Positions 6,736-55,164 of a stretch of DNA of 64,000 bases are shown piece after piece. Below the pieces are notes generated by a model. That model saw only the letters and a program-made list of their open reading frames with translations, did not search any database and had not been told where the DNA came from. The stretch spans positions 20,476 through 84,475 of the forward strand of contig JAAEYY010000001.1 of assembly GCA_018223105.1 (NCBI GenBank), in the 5' to 3' direction. Position numbers and translations under genes: made by a program. The DNA comes from a bacterium. Its GTDB lineage: Bacteria; Bacteroidota; Bacteroidia; NS11-12g; UBA9320. Position 1 is the first letter of the stretch. Every line of letters starts with the position of its first letter.

Positions 6736-7750
6736 AATGAACAACAATTCACAGTCCATAATTTTAGGAATTGAATCGTCGTGTGACGATACTGCTGCAG
6801 CTGTATTAATTAACGGCAAAATACGTTCCAATCATATTGCTAGTCAGGAAGTTCATGCTCAATTTGGAGGTGTAGTACCCGAATGGGCAAGCAGAAAACA
6901 TCAGCAGAATATTATTCCTGTGGTAGATCTTGCATTGAAAAACGCGGGAGTTGATATTTCCGAGCTCGACGCAATTGCATGTACTCAAGGTCCTGGATTA
7001 CTCGGTTCATTGCTTGTAGGGCATACCTTTGCAAAAGGGTTGAGTTTGGCTCTGAACAAACCACTGATCAATGTAAATCATATAGAAGCCCATATTTGGT
7101 CTCATTTTATTGAAGATGAGAAACCGGAGTTTCCCTTCTTGTGTTTACTCGTTTCAGGAGGCCATACTCAAATTGTTAAAATTACAGACTACGGACAATC
7201 AGAAATAATAGGAACAACTTTAGATGATGCGGTTGGTGAAGCTTTTGATAAAGCGGGAAAGATGTTTGGACTCCCATACCCTGCCGGCCCTGAAATAGAT
7301 AAGTTAGCTCAAAAAGGAGATCCGAATAAATTTAGTTTCTCTACTTCTTCAGTTGGAGATTTAGACTTTAGTTTCTCCGGACTGAAAACTTCTGTTCTAT
7401 ACTTTCTTCAAGCACAGAAAAAAGTGGATCCTGATTTTGTCGAAAAAAATTCTTTTGATCTCTGTGCATCATTACAGCATACTATTGTGTCTTATTTAAT
7501 GAGCAAGCTAATGAAAGCAGTGGAGCAAACCGGCATCAAACAAATCGGAATAGCCGGAGGTGTTGCTGCAAATAGTGCTTTGCGTTCTGCTCTTGAATCT
7601 TATGCCGCTGAAATAGATGCACAAGCTTTCATCCCAAAGTTTGAATATTGCACAGATAATGCAGCAATGATTGCTAAAGCAGGAGAAATTAAATGGGCTA
7701 AGAATGAGCTTGGCACACTTCGTGATATATGTTATGCAAGAAATGATTAA
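6736..7750 (+). CDS. tsaD: tRNA N6-adenosine threonylcarbamoyltransferase TsaD
   Basis: Carries the Kae1/TsaD motifs ILGIESSCDDTAAAV...CTQGPGLLGSLLVG...HIEAH. Start trimmed to ATG 6736 (MNNNSQSIILGIESS), giving 338 aa, typical for TsaD. Confidence 0.9.
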
Positions 7751-8917: not shown

Positions 8918-10176
8918 AAAAGATACTAATTCTTCTTACGATAATATTGGGTACGGCAAGCGCCGGATTTGCAGATAAAGTGTTGGTGCCAATGGATGCT
9001 AGTCAAACCAACCACTTGAAGGCGTACGGATTGTCGTATTGGGTATTAGAGCAGGAAGCAGAAATTGAATGGTTATTGAACTATCGAGGTGGAAGCTTTT
9101 TAATGGATGCCTACGAGAATATCATAAAGGAATGTAAAATAAGAGGCATTTCATATGAAACGATCTCTACTTCCAAAGCCGAGGAAATTAAGGCGTATAT
9201 CGCAAACCCTACCATTAATGCAGAGTCTGTTCAGCTGCTTGAGGCACCAAAAATTGCAGTATACTCTCCAAAATCCGCACAACCGTGGGACGATGCAGTT
9301 ACCATGGTTCTTACCTATGCGGAGATTCCCTATGATGTTGTTTTTGATGATGAAGTTTTAGCCGGCGATTTATTGAAGTACGACTGGTTACATCTTCACC
9401 ACGAAGATTTTACAGGTCAGTACGGAAAATTTTGGGCGAGTTTTAGAGGAACAGCCTGGTACAAGGAACAAGTTCGTGAGGCTGAAGATATGGCTGCTAA
9501 ACATGGTTTTGAAACCGTATCAGAATTGAAACTTGCGGTGGTGAAAAAGATTCGGGATTTCACCATGGGTGGTGGTTTCCTATTTGCAATGTGTTCAGCC
9601 ACAGATTCTTATGATATAGCTTTGGCAGCAGATGGAGTTGATATTTGTGAGTCTATGTTTGATGGCGATCCAATAGAACCGGGAGCACAAGCCAAACTCG
9701 ACTATAAGAAGACTTTTGCTTTTCACGATTTTATTATTGAAACGGATCCCAGAGAGTATGAAGTTTCGGATATTGATATAGACCCAAGGGCCAGACGAGT
9801 AGCAGAAGAGAACGATCTTTTTGTATTGAATGAATTTTCGGCAAAATGGGATATCATTCCTACTATTCTTACTCAAAATCACGAGAGAATAATCAAAGGT
9901 TTTATGGGCCAAACAACTGCTTTTAATAAAGATCGAATTAAAAGCTCTGTAACTATCATGGGGGAGAACAAAAGTCTAAATGAGGCTAGATATATTCACG
10001 GTACCATGGGCGAAGGACAATGGACTTTTTATGGAGGACATGATCCCGAAGACTACAAACACATGGTTGGGGAGCCGCCTACAGATTTAAATCTTCACCC
10101 TAATTCTCCCGGCTATAGATTGATTTTGAACAATATCCTGTTCCCTTCTGCCAAGAAAGAAAAGCAGAAAACATAA
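8914..10176 (+). CDS. Secreted hypothetical protein, 420 aa, function unknown
   Basis: Clean signal peptide (MKKILILLTIILGTASAGFA) and start/stop overlap with crcB. No family was recognised with confidence. Confidence 0.55.
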   Translation: MKKILILLTIILGTASAGFADKVLVPMDASQTNHLKAYGLSYWVLEQEAEIEWLLNYRGGSFLMDAYENIIKECKIRGISYETISTSKAEEIKAYIANPTINAESVQLLEAPKIAVYSPKSAQPWDDAVTMVLTYAEIPYDVVFDDEVLAGDLLKYDWLHLHHEDFTGQYGKFWASFRGTAWYKEQVREAEDMAAKHGFETVSELKLAVVKKIRDFTMGGGFLFAMCSATDSYDIALAADGVDICESMFDGDPIEPGAQAKLDYKKTFAFHDFIIETDPREYEVSDIDIDPRARRVAEENDLFVLNEFSAKWDIIPTILTQNHERIIKGFMGQTTAFNKDRIKSSVTIMGENKSLNEARYIHGTMGEGQWTFYGGHDPEDYKHMVGEPPTDLNLHPNSPGYRLILNNILFPSAKKEKQKT

Positions 10177-10227
10177 GACCTCAGCAGAAGTTTGATTTGA
10201 TCTAATGTTTGTATATTACCCCGGATT

Positions 10228-12000
10228 ATGAGGGTAGTAATTTCAGTTTTTCTTTCATGCGCAATCCTATTCGGGTTTGCTCAGACCAATATCAGAATTA
10301 CAAATGCTGAAGCTAGATCAGTTATCAAGGGCGACTTTGACCCATCACTGTATACCGCTAGTTCAGTGGAGAATGATCACAAAGAGATTATTTGTGGTTT
10401 ACAGCATAGGATTTCTACTGATTCCTTGAAATCGTATATCGAGAAGCTGGAAGGTTTCTCTACCAGACACACATATTCCGATACTTTGAGCAATGAAACC
10501 GGAATTGGCGCTGCCAGAAGGTGGGCCTATTCCAAATTTCAAGAGTTTAGTGCGAACTATGAAAATCGATTAATTCCTGCGTATCTGGAATTTGATTATC
10601 CTTCAGGAGCTTGTGGTCCCGGACTTGCATGGAGAAATGTGTTGGCAGTTTTACCCGGAACCAGCACGGAAGACCACAAAGTGATCATTATTGAAGCACA
10701 TATGGATAGCAGATGTGCAGAAGCATGCGACAGCACATGCTTTGCACCGGGTGCTGATGATAATGGCAGCGGAACCGCTCTGGTAATTGAACTTGCAAGA
10801 GTTTTAAGTCGATATAGCTTTAAACACAGTATTGTTTTTATGCTTACTACAGGAGAGGAGCAAGGGCTTTATGGTGCATCGGCTATGGCTCAGTTTTGCG
10901 CAGATGAAAATGTAGCAATAAAAGCGGTTTTGAATAATGATATTGTAGGTGGAATTGAATGCGGAGAAACAGCAAGCCCTCCGGGTTGTCCATTTGAAGG
11001 TCATTTAGATAGTACGCATGTTAGGCTCTTTACACATGGTAGTTTGGCAACTCCAAATCGCGGTTTAGCCAGAACCATCAAGCTTTATAATGATGAAATG
11101 TTAAAGCCCATGATGTTTATCCCCATGGATGTAGAGATCATGAGTCAAGAAGATAGAACAGGTAGAGGTGGAGATCATATACCATTCAGGTTGCAAGGAT
11201 TTACCAATGTTAGGTTTACTTCTGCAAATGAACACGGCGATGCTGATCCCGGTCCCGATTACACTGATCGGCAGCATACTTCCAGAGATTTGCTCTCGGC
11301 AGATCTAGATTCAAATGGTAGTCCGGATGAGTATTTTGTGAATTTTGAGTATTTGAAACGAAATGCCATTATAAATGGGACTTCCGCAGTGATGATAGCC
11401 TTAGGCCCGGAGACACCGGACTTTGTTTTACATGATGAAGCTACAGGCCTTCGGGTGGAAATCTTGGACTATCAAGAGGGTAGTAGGTATAGGGTAGGAG
11501 TTAGAAACAGTGCACAAACACAAACTTTTGATGCTATGTATCTAACAAGTTCAGAAAGCTTTATCATTCCGAACCTCAATGCCGGTGAAACTTATTTTGT
11601 AAGCATTGCCATTGTGGACGATCTTGATAGAACCAGCCCTTTTAGCTCAGAACAATTTAAATCTAATGATGCGAATACGAGCGAAGCTGAACAAGATCCA
11701 CTCGACTTCTCTATAGATTGTAATCTTGTTGGTGTTGAAGATCTTAGATCTACAGAATATAACTTCATTCAGGTTTACCCAAATCCGAGTAAGGGAATTG
11801 TTAATCTTAGAAACTCAATCAAAGAATATTGTGAAGTGAGTTTCTACACTTCTGAAGGGAAACTCATAGAAACGCTGATAGTAAGCGATGCAGAAATTGC
11901 GGTGGATTTAAGCCTTAATCATGGTATCTATTTCTACGTAATTGTGAGTGAATCCGGACGTATTCAGCAAGGTAAATTAATCATTCAAGATCAGAAATAA
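10228..12000 (+). CDS. M28-family zinc peptidase (aminopeptidase) with T9SS C-terminal sorting domain
   Basis: M28 motifs are present (HMDSR...GADDNGSGTA...TTGEEQGLYGA). The C-terminal ~80 aa (YPNPSKGIVNL...IYFYVIVSESG...GKLIIQ) match a T9SS CTD. Confidence 0.8.
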   Translation: MRVVISVFLSCAILFGFAQTNIRITNAEARSVIKGDFDPSLYTASSVENDHKEIICGLQHRISTDSLKSYIEKLEGFSTRHTYSDTLSNETGIGAARRWAYSKFQEFSANYENRLIPAYLEFDYPSGACGPGLAWRNVLAVLPGTSTEDHKVIIIEAHMDSRCAEACDSTCFAPGADDNGSGTALVIELARVLSRYSFKHSIVFMLTTGEEQGLYGASAMAQFCADENVAIKAVLNNDIVGGIECGETASPPGCPFEGHLDSTHVRLFTHGSLATPNRGLARTIKLYNDEMLKPMMFIPMDVEIMSQEDRTGRGGDHIPFRLQGFTNVRFTSANEHGDADPGPDYTDRQHTSRDLLSADLDSNGSPDEYFVNFEYLKRNAIINGTSAVMIALGPETPDFVLHDEATGLRVEILDYQEGSRYRVGVRNSAQTQTFDAMYLTSSESFIIPNLNAGETYFVSIAIVDDLDRTSPFSSEQFKSNDANTSEAEQDPLDFSIDCNLVGVEDLRSTEYNFIQVYPNPSKGIVNLRNSIKEYCEVSFYTSEGKLIETLIVSDAEIAVDLSLNHGIYFYVIVSESGRIQQGKLIIQDQK

Positions 12001-19509: not shown

Positions 19510-19881
19510 ATGAATACTACCCACAAAAAAGTACTGATTCTTGAGGATGATGATGATGCAGGACTTTTAGTAGCTCGAATGCTGGAAAGCAATGGTTTTA
19601 AAACCGAGGTAGTGAAAAAAATCTCATCTGCAAAGTCTAAAATTGCACAAGAACCAGACTACGATTTATTATTTTTTGATTATAACTTACCCGATGGCAA
19701 TAGTTTTGATTTAATACGAAATCTGAATGAAGACTACAGTTCTCCGATTATTGTGTATAGTGCATACTTAACTGAGTCTGACCGTGAGGAGGCCAAAGCT
19801 CTTGGAGTCTTAGATTGCTTAAAGAAACCTATTGATAATCAAGTTATTTTCGCCACACTTAAAAGACACGAACTCATCTGA
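19510..19881 (+). CDS. Response regulator, stand-alone receiver (CheY-like) domain
   Basis: KKVLILEDDDD...FFDYNLPDG...LKKP match receiver-domain acidic pocket and K residues. Its stop overlaps the start of the next gene (TGATG). Confidence 0.8.
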   Translation: MNTTHKKVLILEDDDDAGLLVARMLESNGFKTEVVKKISSAKSKIAQEPDYDLLFFDYNLPDGNSFDLIRNLNEDYSSPIIVYSAYLTESDREEAKALGVLDCLKKPIDNQVIFATLKRHELI

Positions 19882-50124: not shown

Positions 50125-53100
50125 TTAAATCACGAGATTTACGATTCTACCCGGTACAACGATGATTTTCTTGGGTGCTTTTCCTTCCAACCATTTCTGA
50201 ACTACCTCATCTTCCAAGACTTTTTCAGAGATTGTATTTTTATCCATGTCGAGCGGAAACTCAATTTGAGTTCGGGTTTTACCGTTGATCGAGATAGGAT
50301 ATAGTTTCACACTTTCTACAAGCTGTGACTCATCGTATTCCGGCCATTGTGCATTTAAAATACTTTCAGTATTGCCGAGTTTCTCCCATAACTCTTCGCT
50401 AATATGTGGAGCGAAAGGTGAAAGGAGAATAAGCAATGGCTCGATGATGGATTTGCTTTTGCAGTTCTGTGAACTAAGTTCATTAACGCAGATCATAAAC
50501 TGACTCACAGAGGTGTTGAACGAGAATTGTTCAATATCATCACTTACCTTTTTTATGGTTTTATGAAGCGATTTTAGTGAATCTTTAGAAGGAGTTTCAT
50601 CTGTGATCAAGAAATTACCATCCTGGTCGAAGCAGAGGTTCCAAAGTTTTTTAAGAAAACGGTGGGTTCCATCGATTCCCTGCGTACTCCATGGTTTTGA
50701 ATCTTGCAGTGGTCCGAGGAACATTTCGTATAGTCTCAAGGTATCCGCTCCGTATTCGTCGCAGACATCGTCGGGGTTTACCACGTTACCCCAACGTTTG
50801 GACATTTTTTCAGTGATGATTCCAGCTTGAAAATAGTTTTTATGTACTTCCGTAGATTCCTCATGATATTCAATAATCTCATTTGCTTCAGATAAGTCAA
50901 AAATTGAGGTGTTTTCAGGAAGATTGTACTTGTTTTCCTTCAGGAATAATTCAAAATTCACTGAACCATTTTTATCTACAAATTCCAAGGGAATTCTAAT
51001 GACTTCAATCGGGTCAAGATCAGATGGTATCTGTGGGTGTAGACTGCCAGAAATCTCATTGTTAGTTACTTTATACTTTTTATACTTCTTCAAAAAGATT
51101 TCTTCAAATTTCAATTTAACAAAATCTTGATTAGATGCATTTTGCAAGAACTGGGCAAGTTTTCCAGTTAATAATACCCTTCCAAAAACTTCATTAGGGT
51201 CTGGAAATGATGGGTTATCACCCCAAAATGAACCAGAAAAACTAAGTCTAATAAAGTTAATCACCCTACTTTGCCCCTGAATCATCCCTTGATTAATCAA
51301 CTTCTTAAAAGGCTCATCGAAATCAATTCTGCCGAGATCGTATAAAAATTTGGTCCAGAATCTACTGTATAACAAGTGTCCGGTAGCATGCTCGGCTCCA
51401 CCCATATAAAGATCTACCTGATTCCAATATTTTAGTTTCTCAGGCGACGCAAAGGCCTCATCATTATTTGGATCCATGTACCGCAAGAAGTACCAACTAC
51501 TTCCGGCCCAACCCGGCATGGTGTCGGTTTCTCTTCTGCCTTCCGGAGTATTTACCCAGTCTTCAACTCGGGCTAATGGACTCTCACCGGTTCCGGCAGG
51601 TTCGTAAGATTGCACATCTGGCAATGTTACCGGAAGTTCATCAACTAAACTCGGAATACCATCCTTATGGAGAATAGGGAAGGGTTCTCCCCAGTATCTC
51701 TGACGGCTAAAGCCTGCATCTCTCAATTTGTAATTAATGGTTCGGGTGCCAAAGCCTTTTTCTTCTGCGAATTGAATGGTAGCGCGGATGGCATTTTTAA
51801 CATCCAGACCATTGATCATTTCAGAGTTGATCATTCTGCCTTCTTTGGCATCATAACTAGCTTCTTGAATATTTACTGACTCCTTGCCTTCAACAACTTG
51901 AACTATATTCAAATTGTATTTCTTGGCGAAAGCATGATCTCGTTCATCGTGAGCCGGAACGGCCATAATAGCTCCGGTTCCATATCCCGCAAGGACATAC
52001 TCCGCAATGTAGATCGGAATTTCTTTTTGGTTGAAAGGGTTGATGGCATAAGCGCCGGTGAAACAGCCGCTCACTTCTTTGTTCATCATTCTTTCACGCT
52101 CACTTTTACTTTGAGCTCTATCGATATACGCTTGAACGGCTTCTTTTTCAGAATCTGTGCTTATGCTCGATATTAATTCATGCTCAGGTGCCAGTACCAT
52201 GAAGCTCGCTCCAAAAACAGTATCGGGACGAGTGGTGAAAACTTCGATGTCTGCAGCACTGCCTTTTACTTTGAAATGAAGACTAGCACCTTCGGATTTA
52301 CCAATCCAGTTTCTTTGAATTTCTTTGATGGACTCAGACCATTCAATTTTGTTCAAACCATCGAGTAGACGATCCGCGTAAGCGGTAATTCTCAAATACC
52401 ACTGCGACATTTTTTTCTGAATTACATCGTATCCTCCGCGTTCAGATTTGCCGTCTTTTACTTCTTCATTGGCCAAAACAGTTCCAAGCTCCGGACACCA
52501 GTTTACGCTGGTTTCTTTTTGAAAAGCGAGTCGGTAACACTGAAGAATATTTTCTTTTTCTTGAGCGCTGAAGTTTTCCCAGTCTTCACCGGTGAATGAT
52601 TCGCATGGATCACCGTGATATTCAATGTTGACATTCCCTTCAATTTCGAAAATGCTAATGAGTTGATCTATAGATTCTGCCTTATTGGTTTTCTTATTGT
52701 ACCAAGCATTGAAGAATTCAGAAAAGATCCATTGCGTCCATTTGTAATAGGAGGGATCGCAGGTTTGCACTTCCCGAGACCAATCAAAAGCAAAACCAAT
52801 GCGGTTAAGTTGTTCTTTATATCGCTTGATGTTTGCCTCGGTGGTGATGGCAGGGTGCTTGCCGGTTTGGATTGCATACTGCTCTGCAGGGAGTCCGAAT
52901 GCGTCAAACCCCATAGGGTGAAGCACGTTGAATCCATTGAGTCTTTTGTAGCGAGTTACGATATCGGAAGCGATGTATCCTAAAGGGTGTCCAACATGTA
53001 AACCCGCCCCGGAAGGGTAGGGAAACATGTCGAGGACATAGTATTTCTGTTTAGAATCATCCTCGGTGACTTTGAAAAGTTCATTCGACTTCCAGTGCTC

Positions 53101-53142
53101 TTGCCACTTTTGCTCGATGTTTTTGAAATTGTATATACCCAT
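50125..53142 (-). CDS. leuS: Leucine--tRNA ligase LeuS
   Basis: HIGH motif (PYPSGAGLHVGH) and KMSKS motif (KMSKRWGN). 1005 aa with a large insertion, typical of Bacteroidota LeuS. Confidence 0.95.
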   Translation of the reverse strand: MGIYNFKNIEQKWQEHWKSNELFKVTEDDSKQKYYVLDMFPYPSGAGLHVGHPLGYIASDIVTRYKRLNGFNVLHPMGFDAFGLPAEQYAIQTGKHPAITTEANIKRYKEQLNRIGFAFDWSREVQTCDPSYYKWTQWIFSEFFNAWYNKKTNKAESIDQLISIFEIEGNVNIEYHGDPCESFTGEDWENFSAQEKENILQCYRLAFQKETSVNWCPELGTVLANEEVKDGKSERGGYDVIQKKMSQWYLRITAYADRLLDGLNKIEWSESIKEIQRNWIGKSEGASLHFKVKGSAADIEVFTTRPDTVFGASFMVLAPEHELISSISTDSEKEAVQAYIDRAQSKSERERMMNKEVSGCFTGAYAINPFNQKEIPIYIAEYVLAGYGTGAIMAVPAHDERDHAFAKKYNLNIVQVVEGKESVNIQEASYDAKEGRMINSEMINGLDVKNAIRATIQFAEEKGFGTRTINYKLRDAGFSRQRYWGEPFPILHKDGIPSLVDELPVTLPDVQSYEPAGTGESPLARVEDWVNTPEGRRETDTMPGWAGSSWYFLRYMDPNNDEAFASPEKLKYWNQVDLYMGGAEHATGHLLYSRFWTKFLYDLGRIDFDEPFKKLINQGMIQGQSRVINFIRLSFSGSFWGDNPSFPDPNEVFGRVLLTGKLAQFLQNASNQDFVKLKFEEIFLKKYKKYKVTNNEISGSLHPQIPSDLDPIEVIRIPLEFVDKNGSVNFELFLKENKYNLPENTSIFDLSEANEIIEYHEESTEVHKNYFQAGIITEKMSKRWGNVVNPDDVCDEYGADTLRLYEMFLGPLQDSKPWSTQGIDGTHRFLKKLWNLCFDQDGNFLITDETPSKDSLKSLHKTIKKVSDDIEQFSFNTSVSQFMICVNELSSQNCKSKSIIEPLLILLSPFAPHISEELWEKLGNTESILNAQWPEYDESQLVESVKLYPISINGKTRTQIEFPLDMDKNTISEKVLEDEVVQKWLEGKAPKKIIVVPGRIVNLVI

Positions 53143-53222
53143 TGCAGTATGAGCGGCAAAGGTATTTTGGTTTAGTTAATAATGAAACCACTGCGTGGAA
53201 ATTACAAATGTCAAGCACCAAA

Positions 53223-53246
53223 TTCCAGAAAAGATCCAAAAAACAA
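53223..53246. repeat. Direct repeat copy 1 (24 bp) ttccagaaaagatccaaaaaacaa
   Basis: An identical 24-mer recurs at 53414..53437, 191 bp downstream. Both copies lie in the leuS-uppP non-coding region. Confidence 0.8.
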
Positions 53247-53342
53247 GTACCAAGTTCCAAGGAAATTCCAAATTTCAAATCCCAGCAAATACTCAAATTT
53301 TAAAGGATCAAAGTTCAAATTGAGTATTAATGGATTTTATAT

Positions 53343-53359
53343 CAGGGTCTCTCAGAGGA
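53343..53359. repeat. Left arm of long-range inverted repeat cagggtctctcagagga
   Basis: Its reverse complement matches 53567..53585 (tcctctgcgagagaccctg) at 17/19 with a 2-nt insertion. The two arms flank about 200 bp. Confidence 0.75.
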
Positions 53360-53394
53360 TCCCTAACTGCACGCGAGAAATTAGAAAATACAAT

Positions 53395-53408
53395 CCGCCA
53401 GCTGGCGG
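53395..53408. repeat. Perfect 14-bp palindrome CCGCCAGCTGGCGG
   Basis: The sequence is its own reverse complement. It sits 5 bp upstream of direct-repeat copy 2. Confidence 0.8.
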
Positions 53409-53413
53409 ACAGG

Positions 53414-53437
53414 TTCCAGAAAAGATCCAAAAAACAA
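53414..53437. repeat. Direct repeat copy 2 (24 bp) ttccagaaaagatccaaaaaacaa
   Basis: Identical to 53223..53246. Confidence 0.8.
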
Positions 53438-53566
53438 AGGTTCAAAGTTTCTTAATTACGAATGTAGAAATACGAATGGTTGATTGTTGATGCCTGAATA
53501 AGATGCCGTTTAAAATTATGCATGATGTTTATTAAGTGTCGCTTTTCATTGTAAAGTCCGTCAAGG

Positions 53567-53585
53567 TCCTCTGCGAGAGACCCTG
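53567..53585. repeat. Right arm of long-range inverted repeat
   Basis: tcctctgcgagagaccctg is complementary to 53343..53359. Confidence 0.75.
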
Positions 53586-53612
53586 ACAGTAGATTACTCT
53601 AAAATTCAACAA

Positions 53613-53668
53613 CTCTACACTCTACACTCGTCATTCGTCACCCGTCATTCTACACTCCACATTCGTCT
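53613..53668. repeat. Tandem heptanucleotide array, 8 units (consensus about YTCKWCA: ctctaca ctctaca ctcgtca ttcgtca cccgtca ttctaca ctccaca ttcgtct)
   Basis: The 7-bp periodicity was read directly from the sequence. It lies about 65 bp upstream of the DUF3098/uppP operon start. Confidence 0.75.
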
Positions 53669-53732
53669 GATTTTTGCAGATTTCTGCTTTAGAAATCAAT
53701 TTTAATTATACTTGCAAAGTAATTCAGTAATC

Positions 53733-53990
53733 ATGGCCAAGAATAAGCAAACAAAGAAGACAAGCACTAGCGAAAATTCTCAAAACTATTTTGTTTTTGG
53801 AAAGAAGAATTATCGCTTGATGGTGATTGGTATTGCAATCATTGCAGTAGGTTTTGCTTTGATGTACGGTAAAGAAGATATCTACGACTTTAGAAAAACA
53901 ACCCTGGCTCCGATTGTAGTAATCGCCGGATTTGTGGTAGAAGTCTTTGCTATTCTTACTAAGCCTGAAGCTGAAAATGAGTCTAATTGA
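53733..53990 (+). CDS. DUF3098-type small membrane protein (conserved upstream partner of uppP in Bacteroidota)
   Basis: Start trimmed to ATG 53733 (MAKNKQTKK...). Two TM helices. Overlaps the uppP start. Confidence 0.55.
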   Translation: MAKNKQTKKTSTSENSQNYFVFGKKNYRLMVIGIAIIAVGFALMYGKEDIYDFRKTTLAPIVVIAGFVVEVFAILTKPEAENESN

Positions 53991-54780
53991 GGCTATCATC
54001 CTGGGCATCATCCAGGGTCTTACAGAATTTCTTCCGGTTAGTAGCAGTGGACATATTGAACTTGGGAAAGCCTTGTTTGATATCAATGCTGAAGAAAATG
54101 CCGGTTTGCTATTTACCATCGTCCTTCATTTCGCCACAGCTTTAAGCACCATTGTCGTTTTCAGAAAAGATATAAGCGAAATTTTCAAAGGCCTGCTTCA
54201 ATTCAAATGGAATGAAGAGTTTCAATTTTCAATAAAAATCATTCTTTCCATGATTCCTTCCGTACTCGTGGGGCTCTTATTGGAAGAAGAAATTGAACAG
54301 TTCTTCGATGGTAAGATTCTATTTGTTTGTGTAATGCTCCTTCTTACGGGAATTGTACTCTTTATTTCCGATAAAGTAAAAGGGGAGGGAGGTCAGGTTG
54401 ACTATAAAAAATCAGTAGGACTCGGCATAGTTCAAGCGATTGCAATACTTCCGGGGATCTCCAGAAGCGGTTCTACTATTGCAGCTGCATTGCTTATGAA
54501 TGTCTCAAGAGAGCGCGCAGCTAGATTTAGCTTTTTAATGGTATTGCCTCTTATTTTGGGGGTAACTGCCAAGAAAATGTTAGATTTAGGTGATGAAGGT
54601 GGAACTACAGGTATGGAAATAGATTGGCTGATTCTAGGAGTAGGCTTTCTAGCGGCCTTTATTTCCGGTTGGTTTGCCTGCAAATGGATGCTGAAAATCG
54701 TAAAAAAAGCAAAGCTAACATACTTCGCTATTTACTGCTGGTTGGTAGGAACCATTGGAATTGTTCTGAGCTTAGTTTAA
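53977..54780 (+). CDS. uppP: Undecaprenyl-diphosphatase UppP/BacA
   Basis: MSLIEAIILGIIQGLTEFLPVSSSGHI and the downstream PGISRSG motif. 267 aa. Confidence 0.9.
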   Translation: MSLIEAIILGIIQGLTEFLPVSSSGHIELGKALFDINAEENAGLLFTIVLHFATALSTIVVFRKDISEIFKGLLQFKWNEEFQFSIKIILSMIPSVLVGLLLEEEIEQFFDGKILFVCVMLLLTGIVLFISDKVKGEGGQVDYKKSVGLGIVQAIAILPGISRSGSTIAAALLMNVSRERAARFSFLMVLPLILGVTAKKMLDLGDEGGTTGMEIDWLILGVGFLAAFISGWFACKWMLKIVKKAKLTYFAIYCWLVGTIGIVLSLV

Positions 54781-55164
54781 GCTGTATTCCGGCTGTAAGT
54801 GAAATAGAGGGATCTCTACATCAAACTGCTCACGTGTTTCAAGATCAATAAAGGTGTAGTAACCCGACATCTCGCCAATTTCTGAAATCAGCGGACACCA
54901 ACTCTCGTAAGCGTATGCTGCACCCGATTCTAAAATGGGCTGTTTCCCTATAACTCCTGCTCCTTCAACGGTTCTTTTACCCGCCAGAGAATCTAAAATA
55001 GTCCAATGTCTTCTAAGAAGTTGAACGGCATGGTTACTTAAATTTTCAATCTTGATTCGGTAAGCATAAATGAAGTTTGCCCCTTGGAGGTCGCTTTGTT
55101 CTTCCTCCAATCTGGCTTTCACCTGAACCCGAATTTGTTTAGATATATCTGAAAGATTCGTCAT
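54772..55164 (-). CDS. apaG: ApaG-domain protein (DUF525)
   Basis: Start trimmed to ATG 55164, giving 130 aa. ApaG-like pattern YAYRIKIEN...VQLLRRHWTILD...GAGVIGKQP.L..G..Y.Y.S. Confidence 0.7.
   Translation of the reverse strand: MTNLSDISKQIRVQVKARLEEEQSDLQGANFIYAYRIKIENLSNHAVQLLRRHWTILDSLAGKRTVEGAGVIGKQPILESGAAYAYESWCPLISEIGEMSGYYTFIDLETREQFDVEIPLFHLQPEYSLN

Follow-up and report, generated by a model that had tools for sequence, protein, structure and literature searches.

The inverted repeat between leuS and DUF3098

The window analysed here, 64,000 nt of contig JAAEYY010000001.1 (positions 20,476 to 84,475 of the forward strand) from the Bacteroidota assembly GCA_018223105.1, contains a long spacer between two divergent transcription units, leuS on one side and, on the other, a gene for a small DUF3098 membrane protein followed by uppP, with apaG and recR farther downstream. 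Within this spacer lies a segment of 243 nt, measured from arm to arm, that is bounded by an inverted repeat (Table 1). We propose that the two arms are probably a relic doublet of repetitive extragenic palindromic (REP) units, comparable to a REPIN (REP doublet forming hairpins), and that they belong to a Bacteroidota repeat family associated with a REP-associated tyrosine transposase (RAYT). The original prediction for this place, a segment of about 240 bp bracketed by inverted repeats of 17 and 19 bp, is borne out in its geometry: the arms pair over 12 perfect bp and, beyond a 2-nt GC bulge, over 6 bp more, giving an inter-arm stem of 18 bp in total. The palindrome and the single copy of a 24-nt direct repeat that had been noted between the arms were likewise both found, the palindrome extending to a perfect 16 bp.

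Table 1. Positions in the window of the repeat, of other features of the spacer and of the genes that border it
Feature	Position	Strand	Sequence or remark
leuS	50125-53142	-	Pfam assignment
Whole spacer	53143..53732		590 bp, between divergent leuS and DUF3098/uppP
Likely leuS -7 promoter box	53157..53164	-	TAccTTTG, Bacteroidota type; 15-22 nt upstream of leuS ATG
24-nt direct repeat, copy 1	53223-53246		TTCCAGAAAAGATCCAAAAAACAA, exact; outside arm 1
Arm 1, pairing part	53342-53359		TCAGGGTCTCTCAGAGGA
Arm 1 as decayed REP unit	53342..53365	+	TCAGGGTCTCTC--AGAGGA(T)CCCTA; nhmmer E=0.043
Interior	53366..53561		196 nt; unique sequence, no transposase coding remnant
16-bp palindrome	53394-53409 (with trailing CAGG, 53394..53413)		TCCGCCAGCTGGCGGA, perfect; single occurrence in window
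24-nt direct repeat, copy 2	53414-53437	+	TTCCAGAAAAGATCCAAAAAACAA, exact; inside element
Arm 2 as nearly intact REP unit	53562..53586	-	minus strand CAGGGTCTCTCGCAGAGGACCTTG; nhmmer E=9e-8
Arm 2, pairing part	53567-53586		reverse complement = TCAGGGTCTCTCGCAGAGGA
DUF3098 small membrane-protein gene	53733-53990	+	Pfam assignment
uppP/bacA	53947-54780	+	Pfam assignment

Taken by itself, the perfect 12-bp core of this repeat is not unusual in 64 kb. First-order Markov simulations of the window gave a mean of 2.4 perfect 12-bp inverted-repeat pairs with a gap of 20-300 nt, and at least one such pair in 83% of the simulations; the real window holds exactly one. A chance repeat without biological meaning is thus what sequence of this composition might be expected to offer about 2.4 times per 64 kb within a distance of 300 nt. 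The repeat stands above chance because of the 6-bp extension of its stem and, decisively, because each arm independently matches a repeat family found outside the window: arm 2 does so with an E-value of 9e-8 and shares its 21-mer with at least 120 metagenome stretches, and arm 1 matches the family on its own and in the correct orientation. This match rules out the chance reading, leaving it a vanishingly small probability.

A hairpin repeat family and its linked transposase

Four loci came out of a scan of 185,579 species genomes in which the two 11-mer ends were sought at a similar spacing. In two of these, a Mucilaginibacter metagenome-assembled genome (MAG) and a Sphingobacteriales MAG, the match runs 9-10 bases past the required 11-mers, with CAGGGTCTCTCGCAGAGGACCCTG present in inverted pairs. 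The 21-mer of arm 2 recurs exactly in the metagenome stretches mentioned above, and a scan of viral contigs gave 0 matches. The unit shared by these loci is a 24-base hairpin, CAGGGTC-T-CTC-GCA-GAG-GACCCTG, with an extrahelical T. Counted with up to 4 mismatches from the consensus, 194 units occur in 704 kb of loci, and 33 of the 59 neighbouring unit pairs closer than 600 nt are inverted doublets in '+ -' orientation, 32 of them 71-140 nt long and one, in the Sphingobacteriales MAG (locus L005), of 234 nt. A single unit is all that is found in 77 of 122 loci.

The position table of the family, drawn from 184 distinct units, reads tt..c-GTC-cc-cg-CAGGGTC-T-CTC-GCA-GAG-GACCCTG-cg. Covariation of the hairpin can be read directly from these units: base pair (0,25), just outside the 24-mer, is G-C in 126 and T-A in 38 of them, and the upper stem shows the compensatory changes CTC/GAG, CCT/AGG, CCG/CGG, CTG/CAG and CCC/GGG. 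With few exceptions the 22 loop variants retain the 5' bulged T, the 3-bp upper stem and a loop of 3-4 nt, and the consensus folds as a DNA hairpin of -13.9 kcal/mol (z -5.1). The covarying pair, the compensatory changes and the fold energy together lead us to conclude that the hairpin is under selection. No Rfam family overlaps the units in 16 other loci, and a full-text search of the papers in the library used found none that gives the unit sequence.

When the profile of this unit was run with nhmmer over both strands of the whole window, it recovered the two arms and no other unit. Their homology to the family is plain, but very unequally preserved. Arm 2 is identical to the consensus at 23 of 24 positions, has the base of its hairpin lengthened by compensated T-A and G-C pairs, shows the T/A variant at base pair (0,25), and still forms a DNA hairpin, of -8.2 kcal/mol (z -2.8). 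Compared with the consensus, arm 1 is short of 2 nt in the apical GCA loop and has 1 nt inserted and 1 substituted, and its hairpin, at -2.1 kcal/mol against -13.9 kcal/mol for the consensus, is equal to shuffles (z 0.04). The arms stand in the family's usual '+ then -' orientation less than 220 nt apart, and their outer flanks, ...GGATTTTATA/T and A/CAGTAGATTA, have no direct repeat in common, so that the target-site duplications for which the original prediction had proposed to look are missing. A 1364-bp Logan contig (SRR7663132; L001), the one further sequence of this organism that turned up, is 100% identical to window positions 53566-54929 and starts inside arm 2; such a start fits an assembly-graph break at a repeat and hints that the unit may recur in that sample.

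The association of the unit with a transposase gene is observed at other loci of the family. In two loci a 190-aa open reading frame (ORF) lies between inverted units spaced about 670 nt from each other. The ORF matches NCBIfam NF047646, 'REP-associated tyrosine transposase', with an E-value of 1e-21 and 74-77 bits. Pfam Y1_Tnp scores 23.9 bits for one tested ORF, at a cut-off of 23, and 17.8 for the other; the sole match in the PDB, a weak one, is TnpA-REP of E. coli (4ER8), with the HUH and tyrosine motifs aligned, and the RAYT motifs PNHvH and DYIHhNPV are conserved. Homologues of this protein are present in 12 of about 120 loci that the DNA unit alone had retrieved. Wherever the gene is complete (7 of 7 loci), '+ ... 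-' units lie 20-110 nt from its ends, in either gene direction; where the gene is cut short (5 loci), a unit lies on whichever side is available, and some RAYT loci have arrays of 2-3 units per side. The protein family numbers about 1,700 members, many of them named 'REP element-mobilizing transposase RayT' (JGI) or 'transposase [Mucilaginibacter sp.]' (NCBI). Among isolates, Mucilaginibacter sp. McL0603, with a complete genome, has a strong unit 3' of its RAYT gene and a weak variant before it, and about six units in the surrounding 20 kb, between called genes. This RAYT gene lies at 10001-10573 of locus L129, taken from CP188251.1 (1916609-1937181). A DDE transposase was not seen beside the units in the loci examined.

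We suggest that the family unit, which flanks the RAYT gene, is presumably also moved by its product, a predicted Y1/HUH enzyme. The functional unit would be a single-stranded DNA hairpin made up of a lower stem of 7-9 bp (CAGGGTC/GACCCTG extended by 2 covarying pairs), the extrahelical T, a 3-bp upper stem and a loop of 3-4 nt. By analogy with the E. coli TnpA-REP and IS200/IS605 TnpA paradigms, from which this mechanism is drawn, the enzyme would bind the hairpin on single-stranded DNA and would cut and rejoin beside its foot, leaving no target-site duplication. The family would fall into a known class, that of the REP-RAYT systems, with the pair of arms in the window as a further apparent member.

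Several observations made in the retrieved loci touch on the make-up of such doublets. Those of McL0603 are heterodimers, in which a unit with a TCTCGCAGAG loop and a TCCTGATAAGG partner lie about 25 nt apart (locus L129, at 1422-1500, 2560-2700, 7402-7490 and 19766-19850), and one 3-unit array sits inside an annotated 85-aa 'gene' that has no Pfam match and is probably a spurious ORF. At positions 780-965 of the Sphingobacteriales locus L005 (MAG contig JBIOHE010000028.1), the doublet cores, on the minus strand, end in ...GYRDYWF and ...GYRNYWF, each followed by a stop, which is how the proteins of the RAYT family end (consensus DYR.yW.). The L005 doublets thus look, by sequence, like RAYT cassettes that have lost the gene by internal deletion, which would give REPIN-type doublets a MITE-like origin (MITE, miniature inverted-repeat transposable element).

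Two loci of the genome scan hold elements of another kind. The Mucilaginibacter MAG (L002; NZ_JAQBOC010000016.1, 1353-1572) contains a different element of 220 nt, with inverted repeats of about 30 bp that start with CAGGGTCTCTCC (CAGGGTCTCTCCAAGGCTATTAAGTTAAGG...) and with further GC-rich hairpins in its interior; it may represent another RAYT-related family with terminal inverted repeats. A 'Pseudomonadales' MAG (L004, 561-790 and 593-1315) encodes a 240-aa RAYT-like protein (Y1_Tnp E 6e-11), with CAGGGTCTCTCC 21 nt upstream of the ATG and, in frame within the gene, a small hairpin, CAGGG-AGAGA-CCCTG, preceded by the 13-nt TTACTTTACAGGG. We considered this protein as the RAYT of the present family and rejected it, as it has no homologues in the loci; L004 itself is probably a near-chance 11-mer match.

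Host range, finally, is wide. The exact unit occurs in contigs of 33-65% GC, and judged by sequence the family spans at least two Bacteroidota orders. At the upper end of this range (GC 0.56-0.65) nine loci (L016, L036, L044, L093, L098, L116, L119, L125 and L126) carry the exact 21-24 nt unit together with inverted partners that have different upper stems (e.g. CAGGGTCCCGAGGCGGAGACCCTG), and in their flanks AAC(T/C)TCCCG replaces the GTC foot; no RAYT was seen in these nine loci. The idea that these high-GC hosts belong to other phyla was dropped, since L126 encodes a type IX secretion system (T9SS) Por_Secre_tail protein and the DusB of L116 is closest to 'Flavobacteriales bacterium' MAGs (88-93% identity).

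Origin of the element in the window

The spacer that contains the element is unlike those of the available relatives. The closest leucyl-tRNA synthetases (LeuRS), from metagenome bins in part labelled 'Bacteroidia/Flavobacteriia', are 73-76% identical to that of the window, with 66% for the best full-length match. In two syntenic relatives with the same gene order, whose LeuRS are 74-76% identical (L006 and L007), the spacer measures 171 and 165 bp, and in a third, where ftsX is inserted (L008), 95 bp; the spacer of the window, at 590 bp, is about 420 bp longer than in the syntenic relatives. No unit occurs in about 30 kb of these three, and in the alignment of the spacers nothing can be aligned except a leuS-proximal promoter block. 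The comparison with relatives that the original prediction had recommended thus found short spacers free of the unit, in relatives too distant (LeuRS at most 76% identical) for an insertion to be dated against ancestral presence.

The interior of the element has no relatives either. Searched by blastn-short against 128 fetched loci and the rest of the window, it gave nothing significant, and in the comparison with the loci it is unlike the other doublet cores and the RAYT flanks. No RAYT or remnant of one was found in the window, neither by tblastn nor with a 112-sequence RAYT profile on the six-frame translation (none at E<3). The window also has no further copies of the arms, of the 16-bp palindrome or, beyond the two, of the 24-nt repeat; the search for more copies of the terminus, proposed as a check on the genome, yielded within the window only the pair itself. 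Both 24-nt copies form part of A-rich CCAAA-type repeats on either side of arm 1, and since these repeats are common to the inside and the outside of the element, we ascribe a common local origin to both.

The 16-bp palindrome folds as a DNA hairpin of -6.5 kcal/mol, and its region matches 19 of 23 positions of gaTCCGCCATTGGGCGGAcaggatgac, with all differences in the loop; gaTCCGCCATTGGGCGGAcaggatgac occurs in about six copies in the 20 kb of McL0603 (L129). This sequence similarity may suggest that the palindrome is the relic of a second REP-like hairpin family, or it may be a coincidence. In that locus the hairpin repeat which the palindrome with its trailing CAGG resembles (gtgagatcctgaTCCGCCATTGGGCGGAcaggatgac) is found at 1359, 5418, 9884 and 12747 (also at 1172 and 5344), one copy lying about 117 nt upstream of the McL0603 RAYT gene.

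We hold it likely, on this evidence, that the arms represent a REP doublet whose two units came together as one, and most likely that the copy in the window is old and immobile. Its status as a relic would follow from arm 1 no longer folding, from an interior about twice the usual length, from the lack of a transposase or other unit in 64 kb, and from the local A-rich repeats that the interior shares with the outside flank. Several points weigh against this interpretation. At 243 nt the element is well beyond the 71-140 nt of 32 of the 33 family doublets, and its interior matches none of their cores. The flanks of both arms (TTTTATAT and TCTACTGT) lack the GTC foot that 77-88% of family units have at -6..-4, an absence that is not decisive because the high-GC subfamilies also lack the foot. 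The 64 kb available from this genome hold a single unit pair, which gives no sign of a high copy number. The match of the linked ORF to NF047646 lies just below the 80-bit cut-off, and the transposase role is a prediction. The nearest relatives, lastly, are distant.

The main alternative takes the arms for two independent REP singletons, about 200 nt apart, that never formed one mobile unit, and the spacer for a place where a few hairpin repeats have gathered or been left behind, as in the mosaics of enterobacterial BIMEs (bacterial interspersed mosaic elements). The exact 24-nt and A-rich repeats on both sides of arm 1, the very unequal decay of the arms, a spacing outside the 71-140 nt range of doublets and the possible relic of a second hairpin family inside the element would all suit such a cluster, as would the 77 loci in which a unit stands alone. 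The '+ -' inverted arrangement is, however, the preferred pairing of the family (33 of the 59 close pairs), two independent insertions less than 220 nt apart seem unlikely in a window with no other unit, and doublets can lengthen by internal duplication, as the 234-nt example in L005 shows. On balance we regard two singletons as rather improbable.

Two further readings concern what kind of element the inverted repeat bounds. The original prediction favoured a MITE, and in its classical form this would be an internally deleted DDE-type insertion sequence (IS) with terminal inverted repeats, moved by cut-and-paste in trans. Inverted termini around a short non-coding core agree with it, and the match to an external repeat family upholds its broader sense, that the arms are a repeated, non-autonomous mobile-element type of sequence. 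Classical MITEs have target-site duplications and DDE parent elements; here the flanks (...TTTTATA/T and A/CAGTAGA) show no duplication, the window has no second copy, no DDE transposase accompanies the units in the loci examined, and in other genomes the same termini lie on both sides of a Y1/HUH transposase gene and fold on themselves as REP hairpins with covariation. The tests of target site, of the gene between the termini and of the hairpin all contradict a classical MITE, which we consider highly improbable. The original prediction was right about the class of sequence, but not about its mechanism or the diagnostic features to be expected.

The other reading starts from the alternative named in the original prediction, the base of a large RNA stem-loop, and sees in the arms the closing stem of a large structured RNA or of a stem-loop that regulates leuS or the DUF3098-uppP operon. 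A 261-nt stretch around the element does fold better than shuffles on either strand (RNA z -4.4 and -3.9), but the score comes mainly from the long terminal stem, which is present by construction. No Rfam family reaches its gathering score in the window, and there is only noise at E<=10 in 52900-54000; the interior has no relatives in the loci sampled, and the syntenic relatives lack the segment. Position argues in the same direction. The Bacteroidota promoter consensus is TAnnTTTG, and the -7 box assigned to leuS is the only perfect match to it in the spacer and lies within the sole block conserved with L006-L008. Because the element lies about 180 nt upstream of this conserved box, it falls outside the likely leuS transcript and is not in a leader; the DUF3098 promoter was placed by eye only. 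An RNA structure is therefore very unlikely, and the element is neither a classical MITE nor a known RNA.

Other candidates for the spacer were examined and set aside. An origin of replication is not indicated, as there are no DnaA boxes and the spacers of the relatives are short. In retrons, the inverted repeats of msr/msd surround a non-coding RNA and adjoin a reverse-transcriptase gene; none of the neighbours here (leuS, DUF3098, uppP, apaG and recR) encodes a reverse transcriptase. The spacer contains simple repeats in addition to the element, A-rich ones of the CCAAA/TCAAAG type at 53215-53330 and 53410-53450 and, after arm 2, about 3.5 copies of a repeat with a 14-nt period (CACTCGTCATTCGT-like) at 53611-53667, and neither kind was found in the other loci or elsewhere in the window. 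The leuS product itself, of 1005 aa, has an insertion of about 85 aa (residues about 631-714) relative to its closest relatives of 911 aa. Other LeuRS homologues measure 983-1019 aa, and three proteins (P0016, P0024 and P0065) carry DUF559 (PF04480) endonuclease-like domains inside LeuRS, two of them also PF18741.

Relation to known systems

The reading as a relic REP doublet accounts for an odd, over-long spacer by debris of mobile DNA, with no new RNA or regulator involved, and so spares further work on it. Beyond this locus, the window sequence led to a well-defined Bacteroidota hairpin family, with a clear structure, inverted doublets and a cognate RAYT. To our knowledge, nearly all that is understood of REP-RAYT biology comes from Proteobacteria, and for this reason the family could serve as a Bacteroidota model for hairpin recognition by Y1/HUH enzymes and for the movement of such systems between lineages.

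Among mobile elements with other enzymes, classical bacterial MITEs such as Correia/CREE and Nezha are likewise short, non-coding and bounded by inverted repeats, and differ from the window element in having target-site duplications and DDE parents, neither of which is found for it. Closer in mechanism are the IS200/IS605 elements (e.g. IS608 TnpA), whose Y1/HUH enzymes recognise an imperfect hairpin with an extrahelical base on single-stranded DNA and make no target-site duplications (PMC6006769 and general knowledge). In these elements a tnpA of their own, alone or together with tnpB, lies between differing ends, whereas identical inverted units flank the gene here and, unlike IS200/IS605 ends, also occur alone as short doublets.

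In Bacteroidetes, Di Nocera et al. (2013; PMC3733652) described CGTC-tagged REPs without a dedicated transposase. Both these and the present family have (C/T)GTC on the outer side of the hairpin and predominantly head-to-head dimers. The CGTC-tagged families 1-4 are defined by a stem of 8-9 bp that opens with A/T pairs, a loop of 4-5 nt, a neighbouring CGTC tag and a CCA tail (PMC3733652), whereas the present stem starts with C-G and has a bulged T and an upper stem, its GTC lies 2-3 nt off the stem, and its units flank a RAYT gene; the family therefore does not have the structure that would identify it with any of the four. The transposase invites a different comparison. Quentin et al. (2018; PMC6006769) defined a Bacteroidetes TnpA-REP subclass 2.6, said to correspond to group 5 of Bertels, whose RAYTs are bordered by secondary structures described as atypical, which occur repeatedly in the genome. 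Compared by motifs, the RAYT of the present family is similar: it too is a Bacteroidota protein, its length is about 180-190 aa, and it shares the HUH motif NH[LIV]H and the tyrosine motif YIHxNP; where PMC6006769 gives YIH[QN]NP and WQ for subclass 2.6, the present family has YIHHNP and FE. The in-frame hairpin in the L004 gene described above recalls instead the in-frame REP insertions reported for subclass 2.4.

The nearest counterparts overall are the REP/REPIN-RAYT systems or 'REPtrons', as known from the REP/BIME sequences of E. coli with TnpA-REP (4ER8) and from the REPINs of Pseudomonas (PMC3116915, PMC3337134, PMC6006769). The present family is likewise a short extragenic palindromic hairpin, and it has in common with these systems the preference for inverted doublets, an HUH/Y1 gene bracketed by inverted units, the lack of target-site duplications and copies in many places. 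It differs in its foot, mostly GTC at -6 to -4 in place of the canonical GTAG, and in its conserved extrahelical T and 3-bp upper stem. The copy in the window, a solitary and decayed doublet of excessive length with no RAYT close by, departs further from the pattern.

REPINs in the literature are mostly confined to one lineage, whereas the present unit is found identical over 21-24 nt in two or more Bacteroidota orders and in hosts whose GC content runs from 33 to 65%, a breadth that is unusual against these systems and concerns the family and not the window copy. One tentative explanation, which we put forward as a possibility rather than an expectation, is that a single REP hairpin, base-for-base identical in Mucilaginibacter (Sphingobacteriales), in high-GC relatives of 'Flavobacteriales' MAGs and in the lineage of the window, has spread horizontally across Bacteroidota orders or is held by an unusually deep constraint. 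Either course would run against the view now current, in which REPIN populations pass down vertically and are particular to their lineage. If so, the doublet described here would be the footprint of such an invasion, left in a genome where the transposase has been lost or was never fixed. It would also follow that GTC-footed REPs possess a dedicated RAYT, the very component that was reported missing for the CGTC-tagged REPs in 2013.

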